DNA of 64,000 nucleotides from Amoebophrya sp. A120 (Eukaryota > Protista > Dinoflagellata): the NCBI GenBank assembly GCA_905178155.1, contig CAJINV010000010.1, positions 124,001 through 188,000 of the forward strand. The letters are read 5' to 3'. How positions within the stretch are numbered: position 1 is the stretch's first letter; the number at the start of each line of letters is the position of its first letter. Both the position numbers and the translations under genes were made by a program. Positions 2,093 through 61,400 of this stretch are shown one piece after another. The notes below the pieces were generated by a model. It did no database searches and was not told the origin of the DNA. It worked only from the letters and a program-made list of their open reading frames with translations.

Positions 2093-2134
2093 CTCGATGA
2101 AGGAGGTGTTTATATCTCGGGTTATGGTAGCTGT

Positions 2135-8761: not shown

Positions 8762-11545
8762 TCAGTTTCTCTCCGGTATCGAATGCAAATATGTCTGGGT
8801 GTGGAAGATTGCGAGATTTGTGATGCAATCTTTCCAAGGTCCGCAAACTCTGTAGCGCAGGGCTTAGCATCACAAGTTCTGCAGCCCCTTGGTAATGCCT
8901 GTTCTGCATGAGAAATGCGCTCTCAGGACGGCCAGAAAAAGGCATCTTTTGCAAGTCACGCAAGACAAATTTTTTTGTGAACCGCAACACGCATGACAAG
9001 TTCCGAGTCTTCCAAACCCAGACATATTTGCAATGCATATCCGGATCCTTCGGTCCGAAGATCTTCGGCGCGTGATCGTCGTCATCATGGTCTATCCAGA
9101 CAAGAAAAGGTCGCGATCCATCTTCCCATCCATTTTTTGCATGACAAAGACTGGCTTTGAAGCCTGTTGTTTCGCATGACAAATAACTCGGACAATTCGT
9201 GGCAATCAGGACAGCTGCCACAGTGGTCTTTTCTTGTGGATATTTTCCCCGCCCTGCGTGGTCGTCCGCTGCATGTTGGTCATTTCCAGAGAATTCGTAG
9301 TCGAATCCTTCTCCTCCACAATATCCGACAGGTTGTCTTGCTGTTTCATGTTATTCGCCACGACGACCACGCCCGTCGAAGAAGACGACGACGAAGAAGA
9401 ATTCGTAGTTCCCTGTAGCGGTGGGGGCCCTCCTCCCCCTCCTTCCAGAAGCCCAGCCGGCTGGTGATGTCCTTGCACCACAACACTGATTCCACCAGCA
9501 GCACCTCCGTGATGTCCTTCGCCGGTCGTGCTCATCAATTGAGCTGCACCATGATCTCCTCCGAGGTTGATGCTGTTCCCGGTAGTTGTGTATGAACTGC
9601 AAAAGTATCGTACTAGTAGAAATCGCATGACAAATTTCCTCAGCATGAAAAATAAAATTTGTATATGCTGATTTGCCTTCACAAAGAAATTTGTATTACA
9701 AATTGCATTAAATGCAAGAGGACCTGCATTTATACGAGTACGATACTTTTGCACAGGATATTGTGCAGACCGCGTTGACAAACAAGGCGTCGTCCACCGT
9801 CGGCCTTCCGGTCTCCTGCACTATGGGAGTGTCAGGATTCAGATCGTCAAAGTTGAAACTCAAATAGTTTGCCATGCATAAAATGCAGCCCACAGAGTGC
9901 CTGTCTTGCAGAGTAGGCAAGTGAGGCAGATTGTAAGCCTGTTGGGGGGTAGGCACTGAGCTGCTAAAGTAGCATGACAAAAGGCGCCTTCCTTGTTACC
10001 CAAACAGCATGACAAACCAGATTTCGGCTCTACCCAAATTTGTCATGCGCCAATTGGAAACTGGGTTACAACTTTCATCCATTTTATGCAGTACAAGTTA
10101 TCTCAACTTTCTTGTCGATTTCAATCCTGACACTTCCATATGCACGCCCCCGATCGTACTGCCCCACGTCAAGGAGTTCGCCTTGGACCGCAAAGTCTGA
10201 CTGCTCATCGCGATTAGATGCCCCAGATCCGTGCTCGGCGGGCCCCCGCCCGGGGCGACCACGGAGCCACCACCGGTGTGAGATTCTTCCAGAAAGTTCA
10301 TGCCGTTCTGGTACACATAGGTCGGGGGTGCGAAGTCTCCGTGCGGATGGTGAAGATGATCATGATGTTGCTATGCTGTGTAAAAAAGTCCCCGCCCCAT
10401 AGTCAAGATGGGAAATCTGCAACACAAATCTCCAAGCTTTGGAAGTCCTACATGACAAGTTTCCATCTGCAGCGTAGTGCTGATTAGCAAGGAAAGCCGC
10501 ATGAGGAAGCCATTTGCTCATCCTATTTACAGCATTACAAATACCAAAACACGATTGGAAATGCCTCTTATGGAGATGCGCATTACAAATGTTCCTCTCG
10601 TTGCGCATTTGCATTACAACTCTAGGGTGGGAACGTTTTTACAAATGATAGCTGCTGCGTGTGTCGCCCCGACTGTCTCATGTTGTTCACCGTCATGGAG
10701 CCTGCTCGCGTGCGTCGGACGGTATGGCGTTCTCAACTGTTACACTCTCAACAACTGTTACATGAATTTGTCATCCAGAACTACCATCAAGATCCACACG
10801 AGAAAGCTGGTTCGCATGACAAATTTGCGAAGGGCTAAGCAGCACCTAAATCTGTGCAGAACTTGTAATGCTAGAGGTGCAGCCTCCCCCCTTTCACTTT
10901 TGCAATTCTTGCATCACAAATTCATATAAACAGTTGAGAATGTAGTAACAGCTGAGCACGCCATAGACGGGCTGGCCTCCCTGGTTGGGGCTGCACTTCT
11001 GCATGGCGTCGAAATCGATCGCGTTCACCGGATCAAGTCCGCCTGGGTAGGCAAGCAGCTCGGTGGACCGGGTGCGGGACCGGGACAGTTCACGCGAATT
11101 CTCTTCCTTCTGGTGCTCGTGAAAGGAGAGAAAGGTCTCGCGGTCACGCACGATTTGGTTCTTGTACTTGGGCTTGAAGTAGAATTTGGTATGAAAGTGC
11201 ACAACTCCCCGTCGTCCCCCTCATTTGTATTCCATGAACAGCAATACAAGCGTCAGCAATGACACAGTTTTTGCATGTTGACAAATTTGAACAGGAGTGT
11301 AGTGCTATTTGGGCTGCCAGAACTTGTCATGCAAACAGTGCCAAAAGGCAAAGCAAAGGGTGGACTGGGTATTTTGCATGACAAACGAGGGGGAGGGGGA
11401 GTTGTGCACTGTCATATTTGTACAGCGCGAACCAGAAAGCCTGGGTTTTGTTGTAGTTTGGATTATTTGATGTTATTTTCATTGCATTTATTGCAATATA
11501 AAGCTGCATAACGTTCTTGATCAGAAGCAGCTGCAGCAGCACCAT
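8762..11545 (-). CDS. Hypothetical low-complexity protein, 7 introner-type introns
   Basis: Elements at 11190-11416, 10723-10965, 10372-10650, 9822-10140, 9591-9760, 9093-9242 and 8777-9039. Traced junctions join in frame (e.g. GGQPV|RRTRAG, QQ|HHDHLHH...VYQNG). Start uncertain. Confidence 0.6.
8777..9039. mobile_element. Introner family A (TATnnnTGCAAAnnnGTCTGGGTCTGGAA TIR, ~250-345 bp); representative copy
   Basis: TSD tccgg. Other copies: 13808-15471, 24031-24292, 31669-31933, 34078-34333, 36288-36555, 37176-37520, 41685-41954, 44268-44529, 46698-46962, 47266-47529, 50565-50839, 50950-51202, 54635-54899. Confidence 0.92.
9591..9760. mobile_element. Introner family B (TATnnnTGCAAAAGTATCGTACTnGTA TIR, mostly ~145-175 bp); representative copy
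   Basis: TSD ttgtg. Other copies, in both orientations: 12260-12412, 16706-16855, 23785-23934, 31359-31503, 33813-33973, 36605-36753, 36983-37131, 45502-45664, 47068-47220, 53004-53163, 53413-53614, 54378-54521, 55210-55359, 56101-56274, 58989-59119, 60648-60797. Confidence 0.92.
9822..10140. mobile_element. Introner family C (TATGGAnGnGTCAGG...ATCGTCAAAGTTGAAA TIR, ~310 bp); representative copy
   Basis: TSD tgcac. Other copies: 23007-23319 (gcttg), 37647-37954 (cgact), 40519-40825 (ggcct), 48207-48517 (tgctg), 52074-52387 (ttgtg). Confidence 0.92.
10723..10965. mobile_element. Introner family E (TATGGnnTTCTCAA..GTTACACTCTCA TIR, ~245 bp)
   Basis: TSD gacgg. Second copy at 11897-12144. Confidence 0.85.
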
Positions 11546-11689
11546 CGTGTGTAATTTTATGCAGAATGGAACGGTAGAGCAAGATCATGTAGAAGTGTAA
11601 TCATTTTTGTCTATCGCGGCCCCATGGTGGGTGCCCATCTGCACCTGGCGGCAAATCTTATCTACTAGAATGGTTGAGCGGGGCGATCA

Positions 11690-14600
11690 CTACAATTGCG
11701 AGGACAGAAGTGGAAGTCGACGCTGGCTATTGGCTACATGATCGCCCCACATGACAAAAAATGAACGCCAGGAGAACCAAACAAAAATAGTACTTACCAT
11801 GACGATCCCGCTGAAGCCGGCCCACATGAGGATCCAGAAGGAGCTGTCCTTGGTGCTCATCGGAAACTTGAAGCACGTCGAAACCAACGCCACTGCTATG
11901 GGATTCTCAAGCGTTACACTCTCAGCTGTTTCATGCATTTGTCATGCAGAACTACCTTAACCCGCCAGATAACCAAGCGGCTTCGCATGACAAATTTCCG
12001 AAGTAGGGCTAAATAGAATCTAAAAAATCTCCTGTGCCAGATCTGTGATGCGACAGCTGCAAGTTTGCCCCTTTCACTGTTGCTGGTCTTGCATTTTTGC
12101 AAATTTATGCAACAGTTGAGAGTGTAACGTTTGAGAACTCCATAACCCACACACCCATCATGGGTTCGTGGACGAAGAGTTTAAACGCGACGGCAGAGCC
12201 CGCAGCCGTTTCGGAATGCGGGTCTACCATCTTCAACAGAATCAGCCCGTTTGCCGTCGTATCCTGTGCAAAAGTATCGTGCTCGCAGTTATAATCGCAG
12301 TCATGCATTACAAATCTCCATCCTAACCTAAATCCGCATTACAAATCCGATTTTTCATGCTGAGGGAATTTGTCATGCGATTTATACTAGAACGATGTTA
12401 TTTCATTTCATACGTCGTGCCCATAGAGTGCCCGACCTCGAAAATGGCCCGCTCGAACCACGCGTCGGGCAGCATTTTTGGCGCTATATGAGAGCGCACA
12501 ACTCCCCCTCCCCCTCATTTGTATAGCATGAACGGCAATACAAGCATCAGCAAGAGTGCCGGTTTTGCATGACAGATTTGCACTGGAGTGTAGTGCTATT
12601 TGGGCCACCAGAACTTGTCATGCATAATAGTGACAGGAGGGAAAGCGTGGATTTGGTATTCTGCATGAGAAATGAGAACGAGGGGGAGTTGTGCACCGTC
12701 ATACGCTAGGAAGAGAATGCAGAAGAAGTGCCACGCGAAACCCACAATGTTGAGGATCACGAAGGCGAGGGTCGCGTAGGGCCAGCCGGTGGCGGCTTGC
12801 AGATCCATGGTGCACAGCACGGCCGTAATCAAGTAGTCCAGGGCGATACCGGACACCTGGAAGTCAATTGAAACAGATGTTGACACGTCGTACAACAAGT
12901 TGTGCAAACAGTAACAGCAGCAGAAACGTTACCGAGACCGCTATTTTTCCGGATACAAATTTGCAGTTGTGCGTGAAGGCTACGAAAAATTTGGTCCAGA
13001 ATATTTTTTATCAGTGGAGAACCAGAACTGGGATGCAAAAAACATATTTCATCTTAGCCACCGCATCAAGAAGATGATCTCAATCTCATATTACCCGCTG
13101 CATGCAGTTGTGGTCAATCAGCATGGGATATTACACTGAAAAGTGCCCCCCCATCCCCAAAGGTGCAAAAATTTGTGATGCGAAGTTTCCGAATGAAAAC
13201 TTTTTGTCATGCATGAAAAAAATATGGATCTTTCTGAATGATGCAGATTCTAGTGGTGTTTCGCATCGCTTGCATGACAAGCACCGCTCTTGCTGGGATC
13301 TTTTGCAATACAAATTTTTGTTATTCACGATCGGAAATCTGTGATGCTGATACATGCAAGAGGGCGAGTGTTTCACTTGGAAAGGTTTGCAATACAAATG
13401 CTTTCAAGTTCGGGGGTGGGAGCATTTTTCATTGTAATATGGAATATCCAATCGCTCGGATCAACCGGTCCACCAGAATCCCGCCCACCATACAGAGCGG
13501 AAACAGCGGAAAATTTTCGCCAATGGTGGTCTCGGCTTTCGGGATCCAGCCGACGGTATCGGAGGACAAAAACTCCTGTAGTGCGATCATGCCCTTCTGG
13601 ATTCCGTATCCAAAAGCGCAAGCCAACCCGATCAAAGCCGCGTGGAGCGTCAGTGTGTCAATCGAATCCGATACAACCGTTTCGTACGCCATCGGCTTCC
13701 GAGAATCTTCCGAATACACTCCAACTAGCAGCAACGGATCAGAAGAAGCCGCCCCCTCGATCCCCTGGCCACCTCCTTCCGCCAGGGTTTTGGAAACCCG
13801 CGTGCCGTATGAAGTGCAAATATGTCTGGGTCTGCAATTACTAAGTGGAATTTTGCAGGAAACGGGAAAATTGAAAAAAAATGCCCCCTGTGCTGGATTG
13901 GGCGGTGGCTGCGGCGGTTTGGAGTGGTGAGGGCGCGGCGGCCTTTGTAATCCTCAGTCCTCATCAAAGAACACCAGTACAGGCACGTGGCAGACCTTCA
14001 TCAAAATACATCGCTACAGCTACAAATGAGGGACATGAGGACCATGGCCCATGAGATGAGGGCAGCCTACCTCCAACAGGGGGCGGCTGTGCCAAGCCGA
14101 CGGCGCGCGCCAGACGGGCGTGCTGTGCGGGCAGGGAGAGGACGGCGCCCAAGCGAGCCGAGGCCCTGCCAAATAATTGGGTGGCCCAGCAGCTGACGCG
14201 CCAGACAGACCATATGTTGCCATTAGGACAGTCGCCCCGAACTATTTCCGCACTTTTTGCGCGCGCCGGGGAAAGTGCGAAAAAAATGGCCATCCAGATT
14301 TCCCCCCCCCCGGCGGAGGTGAAACCGCACCTAAATCTCCGAATTGTGGCGCCAGTTTTGGGCGTCCGGAAAAATGCCAAGAAAAGCCCCCAAGGAGAAG
14401 GCCCACCGCGCCTATTTGCAACGTTTGGCCGGCCGAAAAGGCGAAAGCGCGCAACTTTTGCACCAAAAATGATGGCCCGGGGCCACCCGCCGAAGGGGGC
14501 CCCGGGGGGGTCGCCCCCTCATTTTCCTGTGGAATTGAAGCACCGGTGGCACGGCCCCGATTTTGCCCCTCATTTTGGGGCCCCGGATTGGCCCGATTTT

Positions 14601-17600
14601 GGCCTCCCCCGGAGGCCTCCCTCCTGCGTTTTCCTGTGAACTTAAACCGCATGGGTATACAAACTTTTTCCACTCAATCACGAGCGGAATGGCAAAAAAG
14701 GGCACCCGAGTCGAAGCCCCTGGCGATGTCCATGTCCGGACACTCCCGGAGAAGGTAGTCGAGGTGCTTCAGGGTTGCCGGCCTTTTTCGGCCCTGCTCG
14801 CGGAGCCGCGCCCGGGCCGCCCCCTTCCAGCCGACTCAACCAGGGCCATACCAAGGGACGCGGTGAAGGGGCCGGGGAGGTAGTGGCAGCCGCCTACTAT
14901 GTCTGCTCTTTGGGTTTTGTGACTCGCGCAAGGTATTTTTTGAACAGTAACGGAGGTGGGCGCCGGGCTCTGTGACGATTTGCGCCACAGTGTGTGCGTG
15001 TGTGGCGCGGAAAGCCGGACCCCTGTGCGAGGCAGGCTGCTTGCACCTTATGAGCCATCATCTTCATGGGCCTCATTTGTGCCTGTGGAATGTACTATGA
15101 TGAAGGATTCGCTTTGTGCCTGTAGTGATGTTTTTTGATGAAAACAGATTGCAAGAAAGGCCGCCGCGTTGTCCCCGCTCCCAGCCGCTGTCGCCCTCGT
15201 CCTATCCAGCACAGGGGGCATTTTTTTTCAATTTTCCTTTTTCCTGCAAAATTCCACTTAGTAGCAATAAACTTGAGATGCTAGTTCGCGAATCCTGAGG
15301 ACGCCACAAGTGATGGCTTGTTGCTAGGTGTTGCGTATAATGCTGCATGACAAACCGCGTTTCGGCATGACAGAAAAATGGGGCTTTTGGGAATTAACGA
15401 GCATGACAGAATTTGGAGTCATCGACTACTTAGCAGAGCATGACAGACCTTCCTAATTTTTGCAATCCATATGCCCGGTGCGCGCCAGTTCCGGCGAGAT
15501 GCGATGTTGATCAGCATGACGCCCCAAATGGTCGCGCCGAGGAGACCGGTCGTGGCCATACCGATGGAAACGTCAAAACCGTCTTTCCATTCTTGCATCT
15601 TCGGAAAGTCATCACGGAGCCCAGCAACCTAGAATTTGATAAAAGTTTGTGTCTGTGTTGACCCATATCAATGTAAGTAATCGACAGGTAGGAGGTAGGA
15701 GGAGTAGCAGGAGTAGAGACGAGAACAAGAAGACAGATGTGGCTGTGCTGGACGAGCCATGAGAAGTTTATAGTTTGCAAATAAACAGTAACAGTTACAG
15801 TAACAGAACTACAGCAAGTCACAACCGCAAGTCGTGCACCGGAGTTGGAATCAAACTAAAAGGTCAAAAATTCTATATACCGTTCCATGACCACCCTCAA
15901 AGCCGAGATACATGGAGATCCCGTAGCAATGCGGTAACCAGTCCGCAGATTTTCCGTGCGGTAATTTTCCGTCTTCCGTGTTCCAGGCTTGGTTCCCGGT
16001 CCAGAAGTAGCCCCACTCGTTGGCTTCGAAGAACCTTTTTGATACGATAATCACAATTACAATAGACAAAGGTGTCGTACGATAGCAGTGAAAAGAACTT
16101 TGCGTATGCAGCACAAATAAGAACTAGAACATGCAACATCTTCAGAAAGACCACAACATCAGGCTGAAAATGAATGAAAATGAATCATGAGTATCTTCTA
16201 TCAATACAGAAACAATGCTCCAAACACCCAGCCCGCTAACAGTCCGAACATCCACAGGCCATGCGTGACCACCTGCCCGTACATAATCTGCGGTCCGGAA
16301 CCTTCCCAGATCGCTTTCACAGGGGGGATATGCAATACAAATTTCCCGCACGACACGTACAAAATGCAAGACAAATTTGGCCGAGTTCTTAGAGCATGCG
16401 GTTTGTCATGCTGAATAGGATTGGCGAAGAGTTTTGTCATGCAGAGACGGCAGTTCCAGTTGTGCGTCGTGTACGGGAAATTCACTGTGGATACGGGATA
16501 TGCAATACAAATTTCCCGCGCATGTACAACATGCATCACAAATCTATTCACCAATTTGAACCGCAAAACTTGTCATGCAAGACTAGGATCGAAGTCAAGT
16601 TTTGTCATGCAGAGACCACATGTGTACATGTACGGGAAATTCACTGTGGATACGGGACCTCGACCCCAATAAACACCGCGGCAAAAATCACCGAGATCAG
16701 AACCTTATCCTCTGCAAAAGTATCGTACTCGTAGTAATCGCAGTCATGCATTACAAATCTCCAAACCAAGGTAAAACAGCATGACAAATTTCATTTGTCA
16801 TGCTGGCCGAATTTGTAATGCGATTTCTACTAGTACGATACTTTTGCAGTGCATAAACCTCCGGGAGTTGCGGTCCCTTATCACGAGAAAAAAGTGATAC
16901 AGTTACAGATTTGTTGGAGTTTCTGCATCGGAAATTTTTTCTGTGTGGCAGAGAAAACTTGTAATGCGCAGATCATATTAAGGGAAAACAGGAAGGAAAC
17001 GAGGCTCCCAAGCATTTCCTGCATGAGAGAGGTTGTCTGTGGTGCCTGTCTTGCAACACAATGTGTAACTGTAACACTTTTTTCTTGCGATATCCCCACC
17101 CGATGGTGTAGTAGGCAGAGAAGTAGCTGTAGACCTTCCTGATTCCGGGCAGACACTCCCCCCGTTGCCCAACCGGAACGGTCGGGTCCGTGTTGGAGTA
17201 ACGATTAATGTGGTCCTCGGGGACACGCTATGCAATACAAATTTTCCGTACATCAACATGTACAAGATACATCACAAATCTTGCCAATTTGGAGGGTAAA
17301 ACTTGTCATGCTAAACTAGAATCGAAGCCAAGTTTTGTCATGCAGAGACTGCATTTGTACGTGTACGGGACCGCATTTGTACGTGTACGGGAAAGTTACT
17401 GTGGATACACACCCATGCGGCCCGACGTTGTTCGCGAGGAGCAGGATGAGGTAACTGATAGATGATGTAGATGTAGTGTGTTTAGCATGACAAATTGCAA
17501 CAAGAATACAGCCACATGCATGACAACTCACTTTGGAATAAAAATCTTTATACCCAAAAGTCCCGCCGACGACCGAACTCGGCAAGTACAGGTCCCGCAG

Positions 17601-21572: not shown

Positions 21573-24500
21573 TTATTCACTCAGAATATCCCTCGAATTA
21601 TTGCTACCCACACTATCACCTCCACTTGATATTCCACTGTCTTGATCACCCGAAGATGTGTAGCCAGCTTCTCTGCTGTTGCTCTGGAAGAGCAAGAGGT
21701 TGCTTTGCCCCTCGGGAGATTTCGTGCTCCGTTTTTTTTTGTTCGACGCACTAGATGGAGGGAGTAACAGGCCCGAAGAAGAGCCTGGGCTCGCTCCGGA
21801 TCTGACCGCCGAGACAATATTGGCTTTCATTTTCGCCTTCCGGGCGCGAGACGAAAAAATCGACTTTTTAGTGGACGACCGGCCGGACGAGCGGGAGGAT
21901 TATAGAACTGCACAACTCGTCCCCCTCTCCCTCATTTGTCATGCAAAATGCCTAATTTACGCCATGGCTCTTCCTCTTGGCACTGTTTGCATGACAAGCT
22001 TCTCTGGAAGCCCAAATAGCACTACACTCCTGTCCAAATTTGTCATGCAAGACCTGTATTCTTGCTCACTCTTGTGTTGCTGTTCATGCAATACAAATGA
22101 GGGGGAGTTCTGCACTTTCATAAGGATTCGCGGGAAGACAAAAGCATCTCCTCCGAAACCGGAGCTCCAGTTGGTTCGCCTCCACCTCCGGTGGAGTTGT
22201 AGGTCTCGCGGCCGCTACGTGGTCCTCCCGATGTTGATTGCAGTCCGCTCTGCTGCCCCGACTTGAACTCGTCCGCAGCCGTGCTTTTCCGGGTCGAGGC
22301 CGGCGCTCCGCTCGTCGGGGTTCTTATTACAGTGAAAAATGCCCCCACCCCCGAACTTGGGAGCTTTGTCTTGCAAACCTTTCCAAATGAAACATTCGCC
22401 CTCTTGCATCTATCAGCATCACAGGTTTGCAATCGTGAATAGAGAAAATTTGCATTGCGAAAGACCCCAGCAAGAGCGGCGCTTGTCATGCAAGCGATGC
22501 GATACATGCCTAGACTCTGTATCAGAAAGATTCATACTCCTTTCATGCATGACAAAAAGTTTTCATGTGGATTTGGAACCTTCGCATCACAAATTTTTGC
22601 AACTTTGGGGGTGGGGGCATTTTTCATTTTAGTAGTTTTGCTTCTGCTCCGCGGTTTTATTGTGCTGCTCCTGGGACTTTTACTTCGCATGGAACTACTC
22701 CGAATGTTGGAACTAGTCCGCACCGAACTCCGCGGACCTCCACTAACGCTTTTCCTCGAAGATCTACTTGATCCAAACTCCTCCCCCTTGGGCAATACCG
22801 ACAGTAAACCCGCCGCCGTCATTCGCGTGTGCTCCACGGGCGCACCGAGAACCGTCTCGGAGACCTCGTGCCGCATGTCCGAGTGCCCATCGTGGTCCCC
22901 CGGGATGGTTCTCGCGCCCCCGAGGTACATGTGCTGCTTCTTTTTCTCAATGTCGTCAACAAACGCGGTGGTGGTACCAATCCCCTTGTATTTAAGGGGC
23001 AGCTTGTATGGAGTGTCAGGATCGAAATCGTCAGAGTTGAAATAATTTGTGATGCATAAAACGGATACCAGTTGGCGCCTAGTTTTCAACTGGCGCATGA
23101 CAAATTTGGGTAGAAGTGAAATCGAGTCTGTAATGCTGTTCTGGTAAGGAAGACGCCTTTTGTCATGCCCTACTTTAGCAGCTCAATTTCTACCCCTCGA
23201 CAGGCTTACAACCGAATCTGCACCCCTTGCGCCCTCCGCAATAGAGGCAGTTTGTGCGTTGCATTTTATGCATCACAAACTATTTCAACTTTGCCGATTT
23301 CGATGCTGACGCTTCCATAGCTTGACTTTGATTTTCTTTTCCAACGCCTTCGGCGGCTTCAATTGTGGATACTGCCCCGGTTCCACGTCAAGGCTGGGCA
23401 CCTGCGGCGGCTCCGGCGGCGGATGCTCGACGAAGTCTTCAAAATCTTTCACGTTGAGACTTTCGAGTCCTGCTGGTCCCTTCGATTCGAAACTCGCTGT
23501 CTTCATAAGAACGACCGGCGCAGGCATGACGGCGGACGTAATCTTCTTCTTCTTTTTCTTCACCTTTTTGCTTATTTTCGGCGGCTTGGAAGGCAGGTAG
23601 CTCACGGAAGGAAGAACCTCCGGCTCTGTCGTAGTATCTTCGGTGATGTCCGTGACAGTAGTCGTGTTATCTTCTTCCCCAACATCTACCTCGGCCGGAG
23701 GGGCCGTAACTCCTTTCTCCTGTGCGAAAGCTTTGGCACAGCAGTGGTAGAGGCACCAAAGGAGAATAGAGACGACAATGAGGGCATCCTGTGCAAAAGT
23801 ATCGCACTCGTAGTAATTGCTATCATGCATGACAAACATCCCTTTTTAGGTAAATCAGCATTACAAATTCCATTTTTCTTCTTGAAAAAATTTGTGATGC
23901 AATTTGTACTAGTACGATACTTTTGCAATGCATAGAGGGCGATCAGGATCCAGCCCCACCAGGGGATGCAGCCCGTGTCCAGGCCGGCGGGGGAATCTAG
24001 GTTGGTGTTGGATTGCTCGGTCAATGTAGTTATCATGTGCAAAAGTGTCTGGGTCTGGAAGAATGCCAGGTTTGTCATGCACATTTTGCATGACTCCTGA
24101 TGTCTGTGATGCATGCCATAGCATCACAGATTTTGTGAGGGCTTCCTGATGCCTATACCGCATGACAAATGCTCTTTCCGCGCAGCAAAACTTGGAGTCT
24201 CTTTGCTGATCATGCAATACAGATTTTTTTAAAATCCAAAATCAGCACGACAACTTGGATTTTTCCAGACCCAGACATTTTTACATTTGATAGTATTTTG
24301 TTCACCCGCCTCGCCCCCGCCCTGGGCCGTTAAATTGCTGTTCGGTGTAAAAGGCTTGAGTTTCCCAGCTGCTGGGTCCATCGTGATTCCTCCTGGCGCA
24401 ACCGTGGTCGAACTGGTTGGACAGGTGTCAGGCTTAGTGTCTATGGATTGCAAAAGTATCGTAATTTAGCATAAAACAAACGCATGACAAGTTTTTCCTA

Positions 24501-26733
24501 GAAAAATTAAGATGAAAATGAAGTTTTTGGTCATGCAGATTCACGTAGGAAAGCAGACCTGTAATGCAAGGCTCGCACTTAATACACAAGTACGAAGATA
24601 CTTTTGCATTGGACACTAACATCCCTGTAACAACACGTCGTTACCCTCGTGACTTCGTGATCGTAACTTTCCGGATCATTCGCACTCACCGGGTACACTG
24701 CGAGGTTGTTTGTGTAGCTGGATTCTCCATTACTAAATTGCTGAACGCGTTCCACGCACTCATTTCGTACGCACTCGTCGGTCATCCTGCCCTTCCGCCC
24801 AAGAAGCTCGTTGCTGCAACTCTCCCCACCGATCGGTCGCACGTAATTGGGGTCGTACCTGGTTTTGCAAAGGCTCGAATACCACCCGTACCGCGGGTAG
24901 AAGGTGTCTTGCGGTCGTAGCGGGCCGCTGGTGGTGCTTCCCTTCGGCCAACAGTAGTACTTCAAGCCGTTCGACTGATCTTTGCCCTCGTCTGCCTGCG
25001 TGCTAACGTACGTGAAAACGTTGCAATCGTCCATCTTGTCGCAGATAAATTTGCACATCCACATGAAGTTCTCGTTATTTGGCTTCACGATTCCCTGTCC
25101 GGAATTCAAGTTCGCAACGAAGCTGCTAGAAACGTCGACTGGGTAAAAGTAGTTTCGCATGAACACTTGCTCCGGGCCGTCGAACTCCATTTGGTTCACC
25201 GGGATGTTGTCCAGTGCTGAAACCGTTTCGAACTCCGTGCGCAATTGGTTCGCTTTTCCCAGTAGGTCGGAGCACTGTTTTGCGTATTTCGTTTTTTCGT
25301 CCTCCGTTGGTCTGTGTCCGGTGATCGTGTCTACTGGAATTTCTTTCAGTTCCGCTTCCGTCGGAGTATTTCTTCCCGGCGTCAGATCAATCGCACAGAG
25401 ATCTCCGAAAAGAAAGTCGGTGTCTTCGTTTTCCTCTTTATGCAATGGAAACAGTTTCTCATTCCCATACTACATGTTGTGTAAAACCACGCATCACAAA
25501 TTTATTTTTCAAGATGAACGTGAGTAGAGTTCTCCTGTGCCACTTGTCAACATTCTGAACTACAGGACGGAAGTGGCTGGTCTTGTCATGCAGAAACCGC
25601 AACTGTTCATGTTCTTGTACGGAAATAAAATTATTTTCGATTTTCTGTGTATACCCTTGTGTGGTCCAGTCCGATTTCTCGCAGGAAAGAGGCATGAGAT
25701 CCGTGTCGGAGAAGGGATGGTCAGCAGGAAACTTCGTCGAGGTCGCCGTGGTCGTAGTTGCCTCGGCTCCTTGAGGAACCTGCTGCGCAATGTTGCCGTC
25801 CATTAGCGGCGGCGTACGCGTACTCTCCCCCGGCGATGGTGCAGGAGCAGCAGGCGCGAACACCTGGCTCGGTCCGTGTGGAAGCGGAGATGGAGATGGT
25901 CCCGGAGTAGAGGCTCCAGCTTCTCCGTCTCCAGGGCCAGATGATCCGGGCGTTCCGCCTGAAAATGATCCAGGATCGCCATCGCCGCCCTGCTGCTCGT
26001 CGCCGGTGCCACGTCCCCGCTGTTCGTCGCCGGTGCCTCCACCCCGCTGCTCGTCGCCATCCTCTCCGGAGAAGGAGATCTGCTCACCAGCATCGTCTTT
26101 TTTACTAGAATGCGACCCCTGATGCTGCTGCTGCTCCTGCTTCGCGTGAGAGTTAGTGCCTGTTCTTCTTTCCAATTCGAGCAAAGCGGTTGATGTGATT
26201 TGCTCACTACTTCTTGTTTCGACGATGTCGTCGTCAACTCGCGGGCTTGTCCTCTGGAGGACAGAGGTTTGGTCAAAATCATCTGGACCACCAGCTCCCT
26301 GCTCAACGACCGCCGGTCGCGAGGTTGTTCTCGCAGCTTTTGGTTCCTCGAGTTCTTGGACAGCCACAGCAGGATCAACCACGTCATCTTCTTCTTGCGG
26401 TCGAGGCACTGTTGCCTGCTTTGGCTGGAAGAACAAACGGCGAAACTCGTTTGTTCTACTAGGCGAAGAAGTAGCTCTTGATGAACTTGATCCTTGGTGT
26501 GCCGTTGCCGTAGGAGCTGCTTGTTCTTTTGTCGTACTAAAACCACCCCGTTGCAGCGGCCCACCTCGCTGTACGGAGAGACGCAACTGATGTGTTTTCC
26601 GCTCGGACTCCAGCTTGACTGTGAATGCAGTCGCTCTGTCGACGAGTGAAAGGAAAGTCAGGAGGAGCAGCGGGATCAATGTGGAAACAGAGACGTGACC
26701 GCAAGCAGGACAGCACGTCTTCAGCAGCATCAT
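21573..26733 (-). CDS. Type I membrane protein: signal peptide, low-complexity pro-region, Cys-rich ectodomain, TM, Ser/Arg/Lys-rich tail; 7 introners
   Basis: LIPLLLLTFLSLVDRATA signal; Cys-rich exon at ~24620-25438; TM WWGWILIALIVVSILLWCLYHCC. Traced junctions in frame (TTQG|ENEDT, SRES|SRSSG). Confidence 0.7.
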
Positions 26734-36199: not shown

Positions 36200-39141
36200 T
36201 CATCACGCTGATTTTTTCAAAACATCTTCAGGCTTGCCTTTACCCCCCTTTGGTGCTTCCAGAACCAAATCGCCGAAGCCTCGTCTTTATCAAATGCAAA
36301 AATGTCTGGGTCTGGAAGAATGCAAGATTTGTGATGCAGGTTTTCCATGACCCATGAGCATGAGGTCTGGAATGCGAGACCCAGCATGACAGATTCTCTG
36401 AGGTCTCTATCATAGCTTTCCTGCGTGAGAAACTCCCTCTCAACTTGGTGAAAAGCGGACAGGTTTTGGCACTCACGCAACACAGATTTTCGCATCATTC
36501 AGATTTAGCATGACAAGTTATAATCTTCCAGACCCAGACATTTTTACATTTGATAGTCTTACTTATGCTGTCCGTGTGCCTGAATGTGGTCATCTTGGAA
36601 ACTGTATGAACTGCAAAAGTATCGTATTCGTATAAATGCATTTACAAATTTCCTCAGCATGAGAAATAAAATTTGTAATGCGAATTTACCTTGTTGAGAA
36701 AAAGATTTGCAATGCATGATTGCAATACGAGTACGATACTTTTGCACAGGATAAACTGAGCGCGTCGCCCTGGTCGTGCGTCGCCGCACTGTCTATGCAA
36801 TACAAATTTCCCGCCGCACATGTACATACAATATGCATCACAAAGTTTTAGAAGAAGTTACTTGTCATGCTGAAGGGGCTTGAAGGAAAAGTTTGTCACG
36901 TGGAACCCACATTTGTACGTCGTGTACGGGAATTTTACTGTGGATACTGCCCTCTCCGGCGACATGATTTCCCGGCGCGGCCTATCCTGTGCAAAAGTAT
37001 CGCACTCGTACTAATCGCAGTCATGCAAGACAAATTTCTTGTCCAAGCTAAATCAGCACGAGAAATTCCATGTGTCATGCTGAGCGAATTTGTATTGCAA
37101 TACTACGAGTACAATACTTTTGCACTGCATACGGCAACCAGGGTAGCGTTTTCGGAATCGCTGGGCCAGTTGTAGTATCCAGTGCAAATCATAGGTCTGG
37201 GTCTGGAAGATTGCAAGATCTGACACGCAGGTTTCGCATGAACAAGAGGCTCGTTTAGATGAATGCGGGCGCTAGAAGCATAACAAGTTTTGTAGTTCAG
37301 AAGCTCCTGCGTTCTTCTTTATGCCTATTCTGCATGAGAAATGTCGTCCTTTTGTTCGGGTAAGCAAAAGTGCGGACTTTTGATGTTTTGATGCAGCAGG
37401 TCATGCAATACACATTTTATTTTTGTTTCGAAGTCGTAGTCGATAATTGGACCTACGATGTTGACATCAAACTCGGATAATTCTTTCCAGACCCAGACAT
37501 GTGAATTACAAAAATGGATAGGTAGCCGCAGCCCCTGTACACGCAGTAGGCCACCATGAGGATCAAGGCGCACCCCATAATCCCCGCGAAAACGAGAAGG
37601 ACGACGCCGGCGATCGCACTCCCAGTCATACCGTCGGAAATCGACTTATGGATGTGTCAGGTTTGAAATCGTCAAAGTTGAAATAGTTTGTCATGCATAA
37701 AACGGATATGAGTTAGGCCTACAGTTTGTAGTCGGCGCATGACAAATTTTCCCGGTCCTGGAAGCGAGTCTGTCATGCGGTTTAGGGCAAAAGAGCTGCC
37801 TTCTGTCATGCTAGTTAGCAGTCCAACTTTTGACCCTTACCAGGACTATAATCTGCCTCCTGTTGGTCCTCTGCAATAGAGTTACTTTTTGTGTCGCATT
37901 TTATGCATTACAAATTATTTCAACTTTAACGATTTCAAACCTGACGCTTCCATACGACTCGACAACCCTGTCCTCCAGCTCGTTCCGCTTTTTCGGGTCA
38001 TTGTTCTGCTGTTGTTGGGGGTTGTTGCCTTGATCACCATTTTGTTGTTGCTGAGCAGGAGTTGAAGTTGTTCCAGCTCCTCCACCACCGGCGGCGGGCA
38101 TGGCCTTCTTCTTGTTCTTTTTCTGCTTCGTCATCTTTCTTGCGACGTCGACTTCCAGAAACATGGTCGACTTGTCATCCGCGCTAGCAGATGAATCTTG
38201 TTCCGAGATTTCATTCTGTTTGTTGTGGTTTTCGACGTTTTGATGTTCCTCGTTCAGTAAGAAGCCATTGCTCGTCGTTTTGATGTCCGCTTGGCCCGCT
38301 TCAATCACGTCGGCCCCCTGGCCCTGCTCTCCCGTCGTACCAAATACATCCCCAACCGCCCCAGCGAAATCCAGTGCGTACTGGAACATCGACGCAGGCT
38401 CATCGTTTTATGACAGTGCACAACTCCCCCTCCCCCTCATTTGTCATGCTTAACAGACTGCGCAGCTAAAGCCCGGGGGGGTGCGGGGTCCGAGGGGTGC
38501 ACAATGCACTGCCCTCATTTGTCATGCAAAATGATCCCAAATCCAGGCTGTGCCTCTTGGCACTGTTTGCATGACAATTTCTGGTAGGCCAAAAAGCACT
38601 ACACTCCAGTGTAAATTTGTCATGCAAAGCCGGCACTCTTGCAGATGCTTGCATTGCCGTTTATGCTATACAAACGTAAATGAGGGGGAAGGGGAGTTGT
38701 GCACTGTCATACGTTTTCCCGGCGCTGCAGGAATTTTTTGCTTTTGGTCTGCCCGTTTTGGGAGGCGAAGAAGAGGAAGGAGCTCGAAGAGGAGACTTGT
38801 TCAGCATGATCAGCAAGCTGCACTTGATGTTCTGGCGAGTTCTTTTTGCACGAGGAAGAAGAAGTTGCACATGACACGGCAGCAGGGCCAGGCGCTTCAT
38901 CATTATCGTCTTTACCAAATTCATGATGTGCACTGCCGGCTTCGAGGTTCTTCGCCTTCCGATCATCCTGCAACAGGTTTTCTCGTCGTGAAGACGTTCT
39001 GTCAACAACAGTCTTCACGTCGATGGCTTCGACAAAAGCAACAAGCCCCTCCTGCCGAAGATGCAGAAAAGTGAAGGCAGTTAGTCGAATCAACATGAGG
39101 ATCTTCGAGAGCTGTTGAAGTCGTTCCGGCATCTTGTTCAT
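36200..39141 (-). CDS. QSDR-family membrane protein; 7 introners (3' end approximate)
   Basis: LQDDRK, QNGQTKSKKFLQRREN|DEPASMFQYALDFAG, hydrophobic exon at ~37521-37646. Confidence 0.7.
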
Positions 39142-45967: not shown

Positions 45968-46634
45968 AAGGAGTTGGACATCGAGTAGGACCGGGAGACA
46001 TATTTTTGTGCAGCATCGCTTTATATTCACATCGTTTTCATCATTTTGGAGGTCGATGCTCTCCCACAAAAATTGTACAAAAATATTCGATCGATCTCAT
46101 CTTCATCAACGGTCGGAAACTCGACCTGAAATATTCCAGTGTTAACATCAAGCGATAGAGTACATACGTGTTCGTGTGAAAATGATAAACAAGTAGACAT
46201 CATTCATAAAGGTCGCGCTCCTTCAGTGCTTGCAGCCACGGGGCACGACAGCAAACCGAGATAGTATAGAATCTTGTGCGATGAAAGACACACGTCAACA
46301 AACTTGGTCCGGAATAAAAAGTAAAAATGCAGCTACTCACCATCGTAGTCGTGGAGGTTGTGGCGCATCTCTTTACCCTCAATAGTTTCCGGAAGAAGAC
46401 GAGTCCCAGTCCCCCGGCGGGGTGACAGACTCGACTCTATCGAGGAGTAGAGCTAGAGTTTATGCTAGTACATTCATGATCAGCCTGTGGTGACAACGTG
46501 TAGTCGACGTCCGTGGAACTGCTACAGGAGTTCGACGTGCTCCTTCAGATAACAAATCTGCTGCTCCTCCTTCTCCGAATGTAGAAGAAGTGGACCATCA
46601 ACTACCTCCGATGTAGTACAACTTGTCGTCCTGC

Positions 46635-50473: not shown

Positions 50474-53400
50474 TCACATTAAGTTGTCAAACAGCAAGCT
50501 TCTGTGATCCTTCTTGACGGTGGTCTGTTTCCGCTCGGAGGAACGGTCGCTGCTGCTTGCCGAGTATGCATTGCAAATATGGCTGGGTCTGGAACTCTGC
50601 AACTTGTCATGCTAAATCTGGACCAGGCAAAAATCTGCGTTGCATGGTTACCAAATGCTGTCCACTTTTGATCAAGTTGACGACAGGCAGTTTCTCATGC
50701 AGGCTGGGCTTGATAGTCATTGCACTGAGTCTGTCATGCTAGCAGGTCCTCCATTGCAGATCATATGGGTCATGGAAACCCTGCATGACAAGTTTAGCAA
50801 TCCTTCAGTCAGACCCAGATATATTATTTCCATTTGATACCGAGTCGTCATCCGGGTCTGCCCGCTTGGAGGTCATGCTCTTCCCCGACGCTCCGCTCTT
50901 CATCGACGCTCCGCTGAGGACCGAGATGTTCTTGCTTTTCCGCATGCTGTATCAATTGCAAGAGTGTCTGGGTCTGGAAGAATGCGCGATTTGTCATGCT
51001 TGTCTGGCATGACCAAAAAGTTTGTGATGCGTGTCCAAGAAGAGACGCCTTTGCGTGTCATGTAAAAACGCAGTTTGTCATGCGACAAACGCAACACAAC
51101 GAAGCGCAGACATTTCTCATGCTTGGCTGTGCATTACAGAGCGTTCACTACTCCCACCGCAGCGTTACAAGTTTCCAGACCCAGACATTTTTACAATCCA
51201 TATGCTCTGATTCCCCGCAGCATCCGGGCTCAGTTGCTCCATCTCCTCTTTTGGTGCTTTCGGGTATCCGAAGGAAAAGATTTACCATTTTGTTCATGCG
51301 CCATTCAAATTTCAGCATGACAAAACTTTCTCACAACTCCAGCAAATCTAATGTTCATCTGCACGCCAAATGGCATCCTCCGATGGATTTCAAAAAAATT
51401 CTTTTGATGCATTTGTACGGTAGATCGTGTACGGTAAATGTTTCTTGCATATCAGCACCGACTGAAGCGTGGAGTTCATCCCCCCGTCTCCCCCTCCAGC
51501 AGCGATGTCTTTCTTGCCCTGTATGAGAGTGCACAACTCCCCATCCTCCTCCTTTGTGTAGCATGAACGACAATACAAGCGTCAGCAAGAATACCGGTTT
51601 CGCATGGCAAATTTTCCCAGGAGTGTAGTATTTGTATTGCTTGGGCTTCTGGTGTTTGTCATGCAAGCAGCGCCAAGAGGCACAGCCTGGATTTGGTATT
51701 CTGCATGACAAATGAGGGGGAGGGGGAGTTGTGCAGTGTCATACTCTGCGTGGTTTTCCCGGAAAGAAAATTCCTGCCATCACCCGATGACTGGACCCAG
51801 TCCCCTGGCTCTTGAATGCTCGGGTACTTCTCACGCCCCGACACCCCCGCCGCTTGCGTCGTGCCACGCGCCGAAGCGTTGGGAACTGCGACAGACGGTG
51901 TGGGCACAGCCATGCCGCGCTGAACCGCGACAGGGCTCACCGCGAGCGGGTTGCTGTCGGAAGCATCCTCGTCCTTCGACGACTTCTCGCTCTTCTTCGT
52001 TTTCGGATTAGGAATTCTCGCTCCCGCGGAGGATGCTGGTAATCCGGCCTGGGTAGAATTCCCGGCGGTTGTGTATGAAAGCCTCAGGTTGAAAATCCTC
52101 AAAATGGAAATTATAATTTGTGATGCAAAAAAACGACTCCACTTGAAGCGGCATTTGTAGTCGGCGCATGACCACAAATTTCCCTGGCACTTAAAGCATG
52201 TCTGTCATGCAGGTTAAGGCAAAGGGGTGCCCTTCTGTCGTGCTAAGCAGCACTCCAATTCTTCAACCCTAGCAGGACAATAGTCGCCTCCTTTGCGTCC
52301 TGTGCAATACAGTCTTTTTTGCGTCGCATTTCATGCATCACAAATCATTTCCACTTTGATGAGGATTTCCATTCTGAGGCTTTCATATTGTGTCATCCAA
52401 GCGGAGGTAGGGTGTGGTGGAGTTGTCCCTAGTTTGTGATGCAAAAATGCAAAAGCATCGCACTAGCACTACTATCTAAATTGCATTTTACAAACTCTTA
52501 TTTCACGGGAAGACGTAGAAATGGGACTTTTCTCTAATGCAGCTGAATCGCCTAAGAAACCAGATTTGTTCATATTGTGCATGCAGTATTGAAATCACTA
52601 CGAGTCAGTGCGATCTTTATCATTTCCAATTGATATCATCTGTTGCTCGGAGGCATTTCTTGTAGTTCCATCCCCGCGAGAGGGCAACGAACTGGCCCCA
52701 CCAATCGTCTGCGAAGGATCGGAGCGCCCCGACGCGTCGGATTTTTGCCGGCCCGTCTGGCGCGGGAACAGGCCAGAGGGTACTGGCGGGACGGTGGACA
52801 TGTTGTTTATCCCGCCGCCCACACTTGCGGTGCTCGCCCCGGAGTGATCGCGGCGCGAGGACTTCTCTTTCCGGCTCTTCTTCTCTTTTATTTCCACCTT
52901 TTCTCCCTTCTGCTCCGGCGGCGTGGTGTTACCACCAACATGCCGTTTCTCCAACGACGTCGGGTGCAGGTGGATATCCTTGTAGTGCTCGATGTGGCCC
53001 TCGTATCCACTGGAGAAGTATCGTACTGATAGTAGTTGCAGCTACCGTGCATGACAAATGTTTTCTTTTTAGGTAAAATAGCATTACAAATTGCATTTTT
53101 CTTCTTGAAAAAATTTGTGATGCAATGTATACTAGTACGTGTACGACACTTTTGCAATGCATACATCGGCATCCGGGACGATGCCGCTGGGTACCGCCGG
53201 AACCGAGGGATCCGCCGCGGAGGAGTGGGCGCCGACCTCGCCCGCAGCGGGCTTGCCGTCGGGGAACAAGCCGGAGGGAAGTCCTGGCATGGATGACGCA
53301 TCCAGCGTGCCCTTTTTCTGGAGCGACTGGTCGTTGGAGGACTGTTTCACTCCCGTTGGCTGTACGGTCACTCGGGACGCGTCAATCCCGGAGCCCAGCG

Positions 53401-56400
53401 ACTGATTGCCTGTATGCATTGCAAAAGTATCTTCGTGTTCGTGTGGTGTACGAATTGCATGACAATTGCTTTTACTCCATAGGAAAGGTGAGGTGCAGAT
53501 CTGTGAGGTTTTTTTAGGTCAGGAAAAAGAATGCAAAACTGTAGTCATGTACTACGATGGCCATTCTAATAAATATACGCCGGCGCGAAGGACATCACTT
53601 TTACAAATGTCATAGCTTCCTTTCTTGGACAAAATCCTGTCGCCCAGCGCAATAGCCTCATCCCCCTGTTCGGGTGCGGGAGCGGGAGTTGTGGCCGCGT
53701 CTCCGACCTCTTCTGCCTCGTGTTCCTCCTGGTGGGCTGCAAAATCGGCCTTCGCGCGCATGAGTCCCATCCCGGCGTCGACGGTAAAATGCTCTTTCTT
53801 CCCGAACTTGACGCCCACCTTCTTCACGTGCAGATTCAAGTTCAGGTTTTCCTTCGTCACTTCGGGGATGTGCTTCTTGTGCATTTTGTGATTCATGTTC
53901 GCAGTTTCCTGCGCCATCAGCATGGTCGACGCGGGCGCGACAAAATCCTTCCACTTCTTGCCGCGCTTCTTCCCCTCCTCGGTGGCAAAGATGCCCGAGG
54001 GAAGCGCCGTCGCCGCGTCGATATCCACCGCGCCGCGCTGCTGGCCAGGCTTGATCTTTTTGCTTTTTTTCCCGTCCTTCGGCTCTTCTTCTCCGGGCTG
54101 GACCGGAGGAAGAATTCCCACGGGCGGAATCTTCCTGGTTTCCTCCGTATGCAATACAAATTTCCCGGACATGTGCAAAATGCATCACAAATCTCACCAA
54201 TTTGGAGTGTAACACTTGTCATGCTAAACTAGGACCGAAGCTCAATTTTGTCATGGAGAGACTGCATTTGTAGTTGTACGTGTAGGGGAAATCTACTGTG
54301 GATACTCCGTAATCTCCTTCACCATCTCCAAATCCTTGGGGCTCGCCAGCTGCTGAAAGTCCGCATCTTCGATGAGCTATCCTGTGCAAAAGTATCGTAC
54401 TCGTATTGCAGTCATGCATTACAAATCATCTTGTTAAGGCAAATTAGCATTACAAATTTCATTTCTCATGCTGAGGAAATTTGTAATGCATTTATACGAG
54501 TACGATACTTTGCAATGCATATAAACGCCTCCATCCCGTGCCCGTGCGCGCCGCCCTTCATGCCCTTCCGGTGCTTTTTGCGCTCCTGCTTGTACTTCTT
54601 CCGCCGTTCCTCCAGGGTTAGCGTCTTATCTTCATATCAACTGCAAAAGTGTCTGGGTCTGGAAGGATGCGAACTTGTGATGCTGCATTTGGATGCTACA
54701 AAAATCTGTATAATTGCATGAACAGCAAAAGCGGTACATTTTTTGCCACGAAGAGAGGGCTTTTGCTTTTCTCAATGAGCGGCATAGGCATTAGAAAGCC
54801 CTCACAAAATCTGTGATGCTAGGGCATCCATCACAGACGTCAGGACTCATGCAAAATGTGCATCACACATTCCAGACCCAAACATTTTTGCATTTGATAC
54901 TTCATCCGTCAGCGCCATTGTGGCCCGCTCGTCATCGTCATCCAGGTCGTCGACCAACCTTTCCGCCAGAAACTCCGCCGCTTGCGGCGAGAACCCGTGT
55001 TGTTGGAGAGCTTGCTCCGTCTCCTTCTGTTGTTTTTGCCGTTCGGCCAAATTCATCAAAAACTCGCGCATGCGTCCCACGTACTCCGGCCCGTCATCCC
55101 AGCTCAACCCAAACTGCATCAGGACTTTCTCGTCCCCATCGCCACTGGGACGCAGTAAAAACTCTCCGTCATGCACGTACTTGTCGCAGATTTGGTTCGC
55201 GCACATTTTTATGCAATGCAAAAGCATCGTACTAGTATAAATGCATTACAAATTGACTTAGCATTACAAATTAAATTAAATTTGTAATGCGGATTGGCCT
55301 TCAGAAAAGGATTTGTAATGCATGATTGCAATATGAGTACGATACTTTTGCAGTGCATAGTTTTCGCGTAGCCGCCCGAGACACCGGCGTCAATCAGCGC
55401 GTTCTCGACCACAGTGGGATCCAAATTCACCTCGATAGACTTGCGGGCCGGGTGCTCCGAGATGAAGTGCTTCTCGTCGAAACTCAAAGCGTCCCCCTTC
55501 GCGTTGGGCGCCCCGTGGGGGTCTGCCTCCGTTTCGGTGCCGGTCGTGTCGCCCCCGGGCGTTTTTTTCTTCGCTTTCAACTTCTTCTTCGCCTTCTTCT
55601 TCGGCTGCTCGACCGGCGGCGGAGGGGGCTGCTGCACCACGACGGGCGGGTGGTAGGGCACGGGCTTCTTCTCCTCGTCGGCCGAAGAAGAAGTGTAGAT
55701 GAACCAGAAAAGCAGGCCCAGCCCGATAAGGCCGAGGATCGAGCCCGCGACAATGGCGATGATCTTACCGCACCCGAGGCCCTGCTGAGCTCCACCGGAA
55801 ACGAGGACGTTTTCATTTGTCACGGTGGTTGTCATTTGGTCTGCCTCCGTGAGCATTTGGTGATTTGGGTCATCTGCAGCGTACGTGGAATAGGCCGGTC
55901 CACCCTGATGCGGAGTCGGGGGTGTATATTCCTGAACAAGTGGCACAGTACCCACGAGTGTGGCCGACTTCTCCTGCTTCTTCTGCAGCACATCCATTTC
56001 CACAAAGGCCGACGTGCTCGCCGTGGCCGTGGAGAACTCCGGATCGAGAAAAAAGTGCGACGAGGCTTTTTTCTTCAACATCTTCGCTTCTTCCTCCTGT
56101 TATGCATTGCAAAAGTATTGTAAGTACTAGTGGAAATTGCATATACACGACATCATCAACTGGTGGAAATAAAACCGAAATACCACTTTTCACAAGCACA
56201 TTAAAAAACCAGATATAGTGATGCATGTATAATTTGCAATCAGGAGTACAAGGACAATACTTTTGCAGTGCATCCCTGTTCGCCATCCTCATCTCCACTC
56301 GGCTCTTTGACCGCGCCAGTGACCGCTCCGGCGATGTTATGAGAGTGCGCAAGAACTATACCTCCTCGTTCCCTCATTCGGGATGCAAATTGCTGAAGCT

Positions 56401-57282
56401 AGTTCGTGCTGGCCTTTGGAGGTACCGTTTGCATGACAAATTTCTGAAGTACTTTAACCAGTCCGGCACTGTGTCATCTATTACCGTGCTTCCTTTCTTG
56501 CTGCTCATGCCCTTGTTACAAACTCAAACGAGGGAAGTTGTACCAGATATACTCATTCTTGTGCACTCTCATACAAGTCGAGGACGTATTGAAACATCCA
56601 CGCAGGCTATCCAAGAAAAAAACACCATCACAACCACATTTAGAAGGTTACGCATCAGAAATTTCTCTCGCATGACAATTTTTTCTTGTATTGCAAAAAC
56701 ACAAAGGGAAAAAATCGCCAATAACTCTTGACTGTGATGCATTTTTGCGCATGACAAAAGTTTTTGTATTGCAAAAATGTGCAAAAGTGATTGTGATGGT
56801 GTTTTTTTCCTGAATACAGGCTCGTCCCCGTTTCGCCGCTCCATGAACTTCTTGGTTTTGCTCTGCCCATTCTGTAGGGTAGAGGAGCTGAAGGGGAAGA
56901 CGGAAGTGGCTACTCCGGCGTGCTGCGAATTTTGTTCAACATCCGGCTTGCTAGACTCCGCTTCTGCTACTTCTGTGTTTTCATTTTGCTTTTGGCCGAG
57001 GACTTGTTGTTCCTTGTTCTCTGCTGTAGTACTCTCATCGTCGACCTTCAACGCCCGATCTGCCTGCAATTGTTCAGCATTTTCTGCACGCCCATCCGAC
57101 GCCTCTATGTGCATGCGCGGCTTCAGGGCAGAAACTTGTTGGAAGGTGTCCGTAGTTGTACCCAGAAGTAGGGTTATGAACTGCAGTACTGCAAGGCGCT
57201 TGGTCGCCGTTGAACCAATCCTCGCCGTGGCGAGAGGTCCTCGTAACGCACGGGCGCTCATTAGGATCTTGCTCTGCTCCAT
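50474..57282 (-). CDS. QSDR-family membrane protein with long cytoplasmic tail; ~15 introns
   Basis: LQADR, QNGQSKTKKFMERRNGDEP|AWMFQYVLD|xAG, TM IIAIVAGSILGLIGLGLLFWFIY. Not every junction traced, so it could be two genes. Confidence 0.65.
54148..54304. mobile_element. Introner family I (TATGCAATACAAATTTCCCG...GGGAAAnnnACTGTGGATA, ~150-245 bp); representative copy
   Basis: TSD ctccg. Other copies: 16329-16493, 16499-16652, 17229-17407, 25439-25653, 31966-32149, 32234-32479, 36794-36946, 59217-59437, and reversed at 51265-51451. Confidence 0.9.

Positions 57283-61400: not shown

Follow-up and report, generated by a model that had tools for sequence, protein, structure and literature searches.

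A repeated internal motif in the introner elements of Amoebophrya sp. A120 and its possible role as a transposase binding site

Introner elements, host genes and removal junctions

We analysed a 64,000-nt stretch of Amoebophrya sp. A120 (contig CAJINV010000010.1, positions 124,001 to 188,000), referred to here as the window; the features discussed are presented in Table 1. Window exon 55365–56099 is 100% identical to a deposited Amoebophrya sp. A120 protein of 1,199 aa, and exon 17865–18419 is 99% identical to another of 1,712 aa. The host genes, including those of P0005 and P0001, were assigned to no family in Pfam.

Table 1. Features of the window, with coordinates and strand
Feature	Coordinates	Strand	Description
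TAT...ATA elements (n=75)	8777..60797	.	5-bp target duplications; the first 74 hold 112 strict motif sites
Host gene of P0005 (1,712 aa)	9041..20454	-	17 element introns, 5 GT-AG introns
Motif site	9139..9148	+	within element 9093-9242, which has another site in the same direction 35 bp further along
Motif site	9625..9634	+	within element 9591-9760 of the largest family; lies 31 bp inward of the degenerate terminal copy (positions 4-13)
Motif site	10039..10048	-	in element 9822-10140
Motif-free insert, 1,425 nt (1.4 kb)	13839..15263	.	long inverted repeats, TAC...GTA ends, 5-bp duplication; nested in element 13808-15471; control, different family
Typical 150-nt element	16706..16855	.	four sites (43>, 74>, 90<, 108<), same-direction pair 31 bp apart
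GT-AG intron, 99 nt	17455..17553	-	two sites 33 bp apart (17485, 17518); without terminal repeat or target duplication
Shared orthologous element	24442..24615	-	only window element also present in L079; of three sites, each lineage broke one by a 3-nt insertion, keeping two
Typical 265-nt element	31669..31933	.	five sites (45<, 77<, 94>, 117<, 218>)
Host gene of P0006 (381 aa)	36561..39141	-	6 element introns
Decayed family copy	37176..37520	-	five one-mismatch sites, none exact; removed as a 350-nt intron, no GT-AG option
Host gene of P0001 (1,199 aa)	50477..57282	-	15 elements
Copy with zero exact sites	56101..56274	-	changed terminus; P0001 fits GT-AG removal from an internal GT, keeping 15 nt

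The elements are 110–345 nt long, with one outlier of 1,664 nt that contains a nested insert. A motif-blind detector called 61 of them in the window, of which 59 were kept and two were rejected by eye. Another 15 of the first 74 had their limits set manually around the remaining motif sites, so the per-element motif rates of the window are biased upward; the 75th (37176–37520) was added later. The first 74 elements comprise 10 multi-copy families and 17 singletons (27 groups), and in 62/74 the flanking 5-bp duplication has at most one mismatch. In the family-weighted end profile, positions 1–3 (TAT) reach 0.95–0.98, a value partly built in by the detector, which required TAT/ATA, and A at positions 11–13 reaches 0.78–0.91. 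The ends thus fit the A120 introner consensus of inverted repeats with TAT, seven looser bases and at least three A, and the elements are the known introners of Amoebophrya sp. A120 as described in the text of PMC7789003. Like MITEs, they are short and non-coding, with terminal repeats, a target duplication and recent insertion, and they carry a repeated internal motif in both directions near their ends.

When each element is removed together with 5 nt, long minus-strand ORFs are restored, and 71/75 elements are spanned by an ORF of at least 150 aa. The other four (8777, 36288, 44268 and 44592) are located at the ends of genes or within a short stretch lacking annotation, and no clearly intergenic element was found in window 8777–60797. 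The two large families are inserted in both directions. The six copies of one family (16329, 16499, 17229, 31966, 36794 and 54148) all have the same direction relative to the gene, which may be chance among ten families.

Concerning removal from RNA, the annotation of three deposited proteins contains 37 element junctions, and in all of them the removed length is that of the element plus 5 nt. One offset alone fits 37/37 of these annotated junctions, with the intron running from 1 base before TAT to 4 bases after ATA; offset 0 fails at three and offset -2 at four. The 5' dinucleotides of 74 elements (GT 25, AT 22, CT 16, TT 10 and GG 1) hold no information beyond the T, and AG is found at the 3' end in 5/74. 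The single offset would replace 'no clear splice signature' by a simple rule. Two tandem copies of one family share one target at 16329–16652, with a single 5-bp repeat between them; in P0005 the pair is excised as one 329-nt intron, by use of the outer ends. The copy at 56101, which is without an exact motif site, seems to have switched to GT-AG removal. According to the text of PMC7789003, U1 was not detected in A120, and both the removal of its introners without U1 and GT-AG and their movement are left open.

The window also contains inserts of other kinds. The motif-free insert nested in the longest element has two candidate ORFs, neither with a Pfam match. Inverted-repeat inserts with 88-nt arms and no strict motif are found at 4840–5618 and 6913–7407; the former has a 6-bp duplication and lies inside the reverse transcriptase of a broken copia-type retroelement at about 1390–6660 (RVT_2, E 2e-25).

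Distribution, spacing and conservation of the internal motif

A first-pass annotation of the window had described one internal motif as common to all introner families, present several times per element and unseen in exons, spacers and the copia element. The three sites it cited (9139, 9625 and 10039) are present, on strands +, + and -. Counted on both strands of the window, the strict motif is found as GCATGACAAA 62 times, GCATCACAAA 23 times and GCATTACAAA 30 times, against order-3 Markov expectations of 1.0, 0.5 and 0.3; the A variant GCATAACAAA is found 0 times (0.2 expected). Strict sites are concentrated in the 74 elements (112/115, or 7.06 per kb, vs 0.04–0.13 per kb outside); one of the sites counted lies across the left end of element 52435, which is uncertain. 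There are no strict sites in the copia region or in the two unrelated inverted-repeat inserts, but ORF-covered DNA (24,492 bp) has one, at 17485, which in reality lies inside the 99-nt intron, and other non-element DNA (15,412 bp) has two.

Based on the number of element groups, the strict motif is present in 18/27 (10/10 multi-copy families and 8/17 singletons), and the wider motif, GCAT[GCT]ACA[AG] or GCA(T/A)(G/C/T)ACA(A/G), is seen in 25/27; the description 'all families' is therefore nearly, but not fully, correct. Likewise, at least two strict sites are found in 34/74 elements and none in 13/74, so that 'several per element' applies to part of them. The number of sites rises with element length, from 1.4 at 113 nt to 4–5 at 310–325 nt. 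Measured from the termini, the first sites are centred 36–50 bp from the element ends, with none at 9–30, and further sites extend to the middle of the 310-nt elements.

The motif is also the more conserved part of the elements. Identity between copies is 0.88–1.00 for the fixed motif letters vs 0.52–0.86 for the spacers, with the same order in 10/10 families (p=0.002); these alignments are partly anchored by the motif, and the spacing test is alignment-free. Same-direction sites lie 31–33 bp apart in 11/17 eligible groups (35 pairs in the window), across unrelated spacers. Taking one copy per group, 7.5 groups have such pairs, compared with 1.2 under random placement and a maximum of 6 in 5,000 draws. 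Among 124 unseeded elements of a second set (described below), 60/194 same-direction pairs fall at 31–33 bp, and the pooled pairs number 76, 42 and 18 at 31, 32 and 33 bp, seeds included. The spacing persists despite frequent 3-nt indels. Inward opposite-direction pairs are most frequent at 34 and 65, and outward ones at 16–17 and 48–50, spacings by which a 16-bp lattice is only suggested. The direction of the sites relative to the element end differs between families. B-DNA has 10.5 bp per turn, and 31–32 bp corresponds to three turns; we infer two binding units three helical turns apart.

No strand bias is seen: sites on the mRNA strand and its complement number 50:62 in the window and 122:121 in the second set, the latter counted in the 76/161 elements with a strand call. 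Wider-form sites are confined to one strand in 26/72 window elements (10 sense, 16 antisense). In mirror sites, the variable fifth letter matches in 21/63 pairs vs 21.6 by chance, so there is no co-variation. The spacing, the strand neutrality and the lack of mirror co-variation point to a protein that would read double-stranded DNA. On these sequence data, the idea of one common trans-acting binder is well supported, since the motif is conserved in 10/10 families and its spacing is kept across unrelated spacers. A factor reading single-stranded RNA, for example at a sense-strand splicing enhancer, is not supported by the strand counts or by the many elements with sites on a single strand only.

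A degenerate copy of the motif is present at positions 4–14 of the element ends (best offset 4 in the window and 5 in the second set). When the A-run is kept constant, the score of the terminal copy is -0.42 vs -3.52 +/- 0.67 in the window and -1.74 vs -4.0 +/- 0.6 in the second set, and 105/458 ends reach 4 bits vs 0.5% in the background. The terminal copy is clear in 12/27 groups and exact in one family, and weak or absent in others, so the echo of the motif is a weak one. The published end consensus ('TAT, seven bases, AAA') aligns with it.

A related assembly and an orthologous locus

Metagenome contigs were scanned with a motif-pair pattern in 10 of 64 parts. Among the 122 metagenome matches listed, 60 come from assembly JACKZZ01, of which 59 match elements; the other 62 match none. 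We used 33 of the 60 loci (180,837 nt) as a second set, dropping L022, which overlaps L021, and 26 short ones; loci L015 and L060 overlap by 2.9 kb. This related assembly carries the same element families as the window. The motif-blind detector found 161 elements in the 33 loci, 153 of them with an internal motif site and 33 holding the search seed, and site density is 13.6 per kb inside vs 1.0 per kb outside the elements. Of 70 motif clusters outside detected elements, 44 are family remnants, 16 single sites, 8 orphan clusters and 2 weak-ended. The motif-pair pattern was also found at 6 viral and 108 prokaryote loci, none of which matches an element by blastn, and the terminal-repeat pattern had no match in viral contigs. 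The 12 motif-rich non-Amoebophrya loci inspected consist mainly of tandem or simple repeats. TAT...ATA elements of greater length, filled with unrelated sequence and flanked by perfect 5-bp duplications, are seen at L028 433–1641, L073 3622–4243 and L065 3119–3749; in these longer elements, among them the 1.2-kb and 622-nt derivatives, exact sites are confined to one end.

Among the loci of the second set, L079 is the ortholog of window 21135–25001, with 88–96% identity. It lacks 5/6 of the window elements, three of the sites being left as one clean 5-bp target, and contains two insertions absent from the window, one of them truncated at the contig end, and one element shared with the window. 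The empty sites imply that the elements move and that most of them postdate a split of a few percent. The shared copy has diverged at about the same rate as non-coding DNA (10/164 vs 20/426). At its ends (window 24434–24623), base changes on both sides form a new 8-bp inverted repeat outside the old termini, which looks like template switching restoring end pairing. Also, indels of 3 or 6 nt dominate between L079 and window 21135–21575 even in non-coding DNA (3, 3, 6, 3, 6, 5, 3), and 3-nt indels make up 23/65 in 38 close element pairs; based on these sizes there is a mutational bias toward 3-nt steps.

Mismatch within the target duplication was tried as an age clock and rejected. Within families the fraction of intact sites is flat (0.73, 0.73 and 0.74), and ends and spacers do not track the mismatch, so this clock says nothing for or against the readings below. 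Over all elements, site density by duplication mismatch is 1.37, 1.25 and 0.95 (p=0.096; window p=0.21).

Candidate roles of the motif and comparison with known systems

The explanation we favour, with a probability that we would put at about even, is that GCA(T/A)(G/C/T)ACA(A/G) may be the repeated double-stranded DNA binding site of a transposase moving all the TAT...ATA introner families. The motif would be kept since only copies that bind the enzyme yield new copies, and the spacing of three turns would place two binding domains on the same helical face. The enzyme would belong to the integrase-like DDE transposases, those of the Ginger or IS3EU/GingerRoot kind, and act in trans, and removal from RNA would proceed mainly via the paired ends, with cuts 1 base before TAT and 4 after ATA. 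Its identity is a guess because no transposase or autonomous element was found in 245 kb (window and second set). The copia integrase, followed as a route to a transposase, matched only two A25 retroelement-like proteins; the integrase region is 67–75% identical to them, which is close for strains described as highly diverged. The arrangement of the sites resembles the inner and outer sites of Mu, Tn7 and Sleeping Beauty. Against mobility alone, about five GT-AG introns keep spaced site pairs without terminal repeats.

The first-pass annotation had argued that the motif persists in copies with decayed terminal repeats and that this retention speaks for removal rather than mobility. Of its examples, the intron at 17455–17553 is a good one: it is confirmed by the deposited protein P0005, it matches none of 235 elements by blastn, and family profiles align to its motif part only. 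The other two are poor, as the single exact site of 52430–52600 lies at the extreme end, and 59560–59690 shows no more than the variant GCATGACAGA, within an element that retains 11/17 terminal matches and 4/5 of the target duplication. In the second set, candidate GT-AG introns without terminal repeats are found in L043 (sites 51 bp apart), L065 (33), L075 (16) and L015 (98), and in L040 (16 and 32), which was a search seed; L035 and L066 are unclear as GT-AG introns, and L014 was set apart as a family remnant. All these introns were located through the motif, and all except 17455–17553 were predicted by ORF joining.

Based on these introns, a possible but rather doubtful reading is one of dual use, in which the transposase, or a domesticated fragment derived from it, would also mark the elements on DNA for co-transcriptional removal by a spliceosome without detectable U1. 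Put more broadly, and just as tentatively, introns would be defined on DNA, with a transposase-derived protein on the phased sites of tens of thousands of introners directing the U1-less spliceosome; old introns that keep sites after losing their transposon ends might, with the same reserve, be included. Such a role agrees with the uninformative splice dinucleotides, with the published failure to detect U1 in A120 (text of PMC7789003), with the apparent switch of the motif-free copy 56101 to GT-AG and with the location of two motif-free inserts inside an intron or a broken retroelement. In the most end-decayed third of 142 copies, mismatch is 0.096 at the ends vs 0.044 at motif letters, a contrast inflated because the copies were sorted on end decay. 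However, the decayed copy at 37176–37520 is removed with non-canonical ends and no exact site (its one-mismatch sites stand against a background of 4.4 per kb), the orthologous copy lost one site per lineage while diverging at about the non-coding rate, and copies with zero sites number 3 vs 2.5 expected under independent loss. Also, 4/5 of the GT-AG introns in P0005 have no exact site (boundaries used a few bases off, 28 at one end), and the ends echo the motif. A role in removal over mobility is thus not established; conservation among copies cannot separate selection for the two because nearly all copies lie in exons, and mobility is the simpler reading.

It is unlikely that the motif binds a host DNA-binding factor unrelated to transposition, such as one marking DNA for splicing or chromatin, and that introners acquired it, by copying or by their own evolution, as a means of being tolerated in exons. 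The introns with site pairs, the growth of site number with element length and the lack of a transposase in 245 kb would suit such a factor, but the motif is echoed in register at the ends, the part that a transposase has to read, and it is missing from most GT-AG introns seen and nearly absent outside the elements. More improbable still is a role in RNA, in which opposite copies would form stems joining the splice sites or an RNA-binding protein would read the motif. Predicted pairing is indeed higher for motif bases (0.79 vs 0.58 in spacers; 0.44 to another motif), and interior folding has a median z of -1.8. This pairing follows from the copies being reverse complements; the commonest arrangement, same-direction at 31–32 bp, is unable to pair, and with the mirror pairs at chance and many elements having sites on one strand only, the RNA role is largely refuted. 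That the motif is a neutral relic of the families' common ancestry, itself likely from the common TAT ends and 5-bp duplications, is very hard to credit, since motif and spacing persist although spacer identity is as low as 0.52 within a family and the spacers of different families are unrelated; this idea is refuted unless alignment anchoring explains the whole contrast, and anchoring cannot explain the alignment-free spacing test.

Returning to the transposase-site reading, the motif with its fixed spacing would tie what had been counted as 1,954 separate families to one binding protein. It could serve as bait for that protein, as a rule for finding autonomous partners and eroded introns, and as a test of whether removal depends on it. 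A protein serving mobility alone would make this a good specialist result; one that marks introns as well would amount to a new way of defining introns.

The elements and subterminal repeats as such are already known, and the motif, its phase and the offset rule appear to be new. None of these three was found in a literature search that covered article text, with supplement figures and subscription papers outside its reach; the motif is absent as a string from 14 supplements of PMC12130899 and from the supplement text of PMC7789003, and the accessible part of 10.1101/2020.10.14.339549 contains no Amoebophrya. The A120 introners of PMC7789003 and PMC12130899 have the same TAT start, seven looser bases, AAA, direct repeats of 3–5 nt and non-canonical junctions; the text of these papers describes terminal and direct repeats only, with no internal motif, spacing, terminal echo or -1/+4 rule, and no transposase is reported in A120 in the text of PMC7789003.

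The closest parallels in organisation are Ac/Ds (hAT) and the Emigrant MITE with Lemi1, which are likewise heterogeneous non-autonomous elements with only common termini and short internal repeats. As described in the consulted parts of PMC3260210 and PMC1636448, these subterminal repeats are bound by the transposase, cooperatively and in trans, and, according to reference titles in PMC3260210, splicing can remove Ds1 as an intron. Ac/Ds differs in its 8-bp duplication and AAACGG repeat; the window elements have 5 bp, TAT ends, a motif of 9–10 letters with a 31–32 bp phase, and binding that is only predicted. Concerning superfamilies, the window elements share TA...TA termini with IS3EU, which always has them, and GingerRoot, which mostly does; both usually make 6-bp duplications (PMC10045372, part consulted), so with their 5-bp duplication the window elements are not filed as members. 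In supplement 8 of PMC12130899, covered for 19/58 A120 rows and row 580, the latter files A120 family 38 as Ginger with a 5-bp TSD and TA/TA termini; no transposase gene is linked to the window families in the 245 kb. Finally, the nonconventional introns of Euglena are also non-GT-AG, with short paired motifs set back 3 nt at the 5' end and 5–6 nt at the 3' end, a rule tested by knock-in; they have different letters, and no internal repeated motif is named in the portion of PMC12501133 consulted. In the window introns the setback is 1 at the 5' end and 4 at the 3' end, likewise smaller at the 5' end than at the 3' end.
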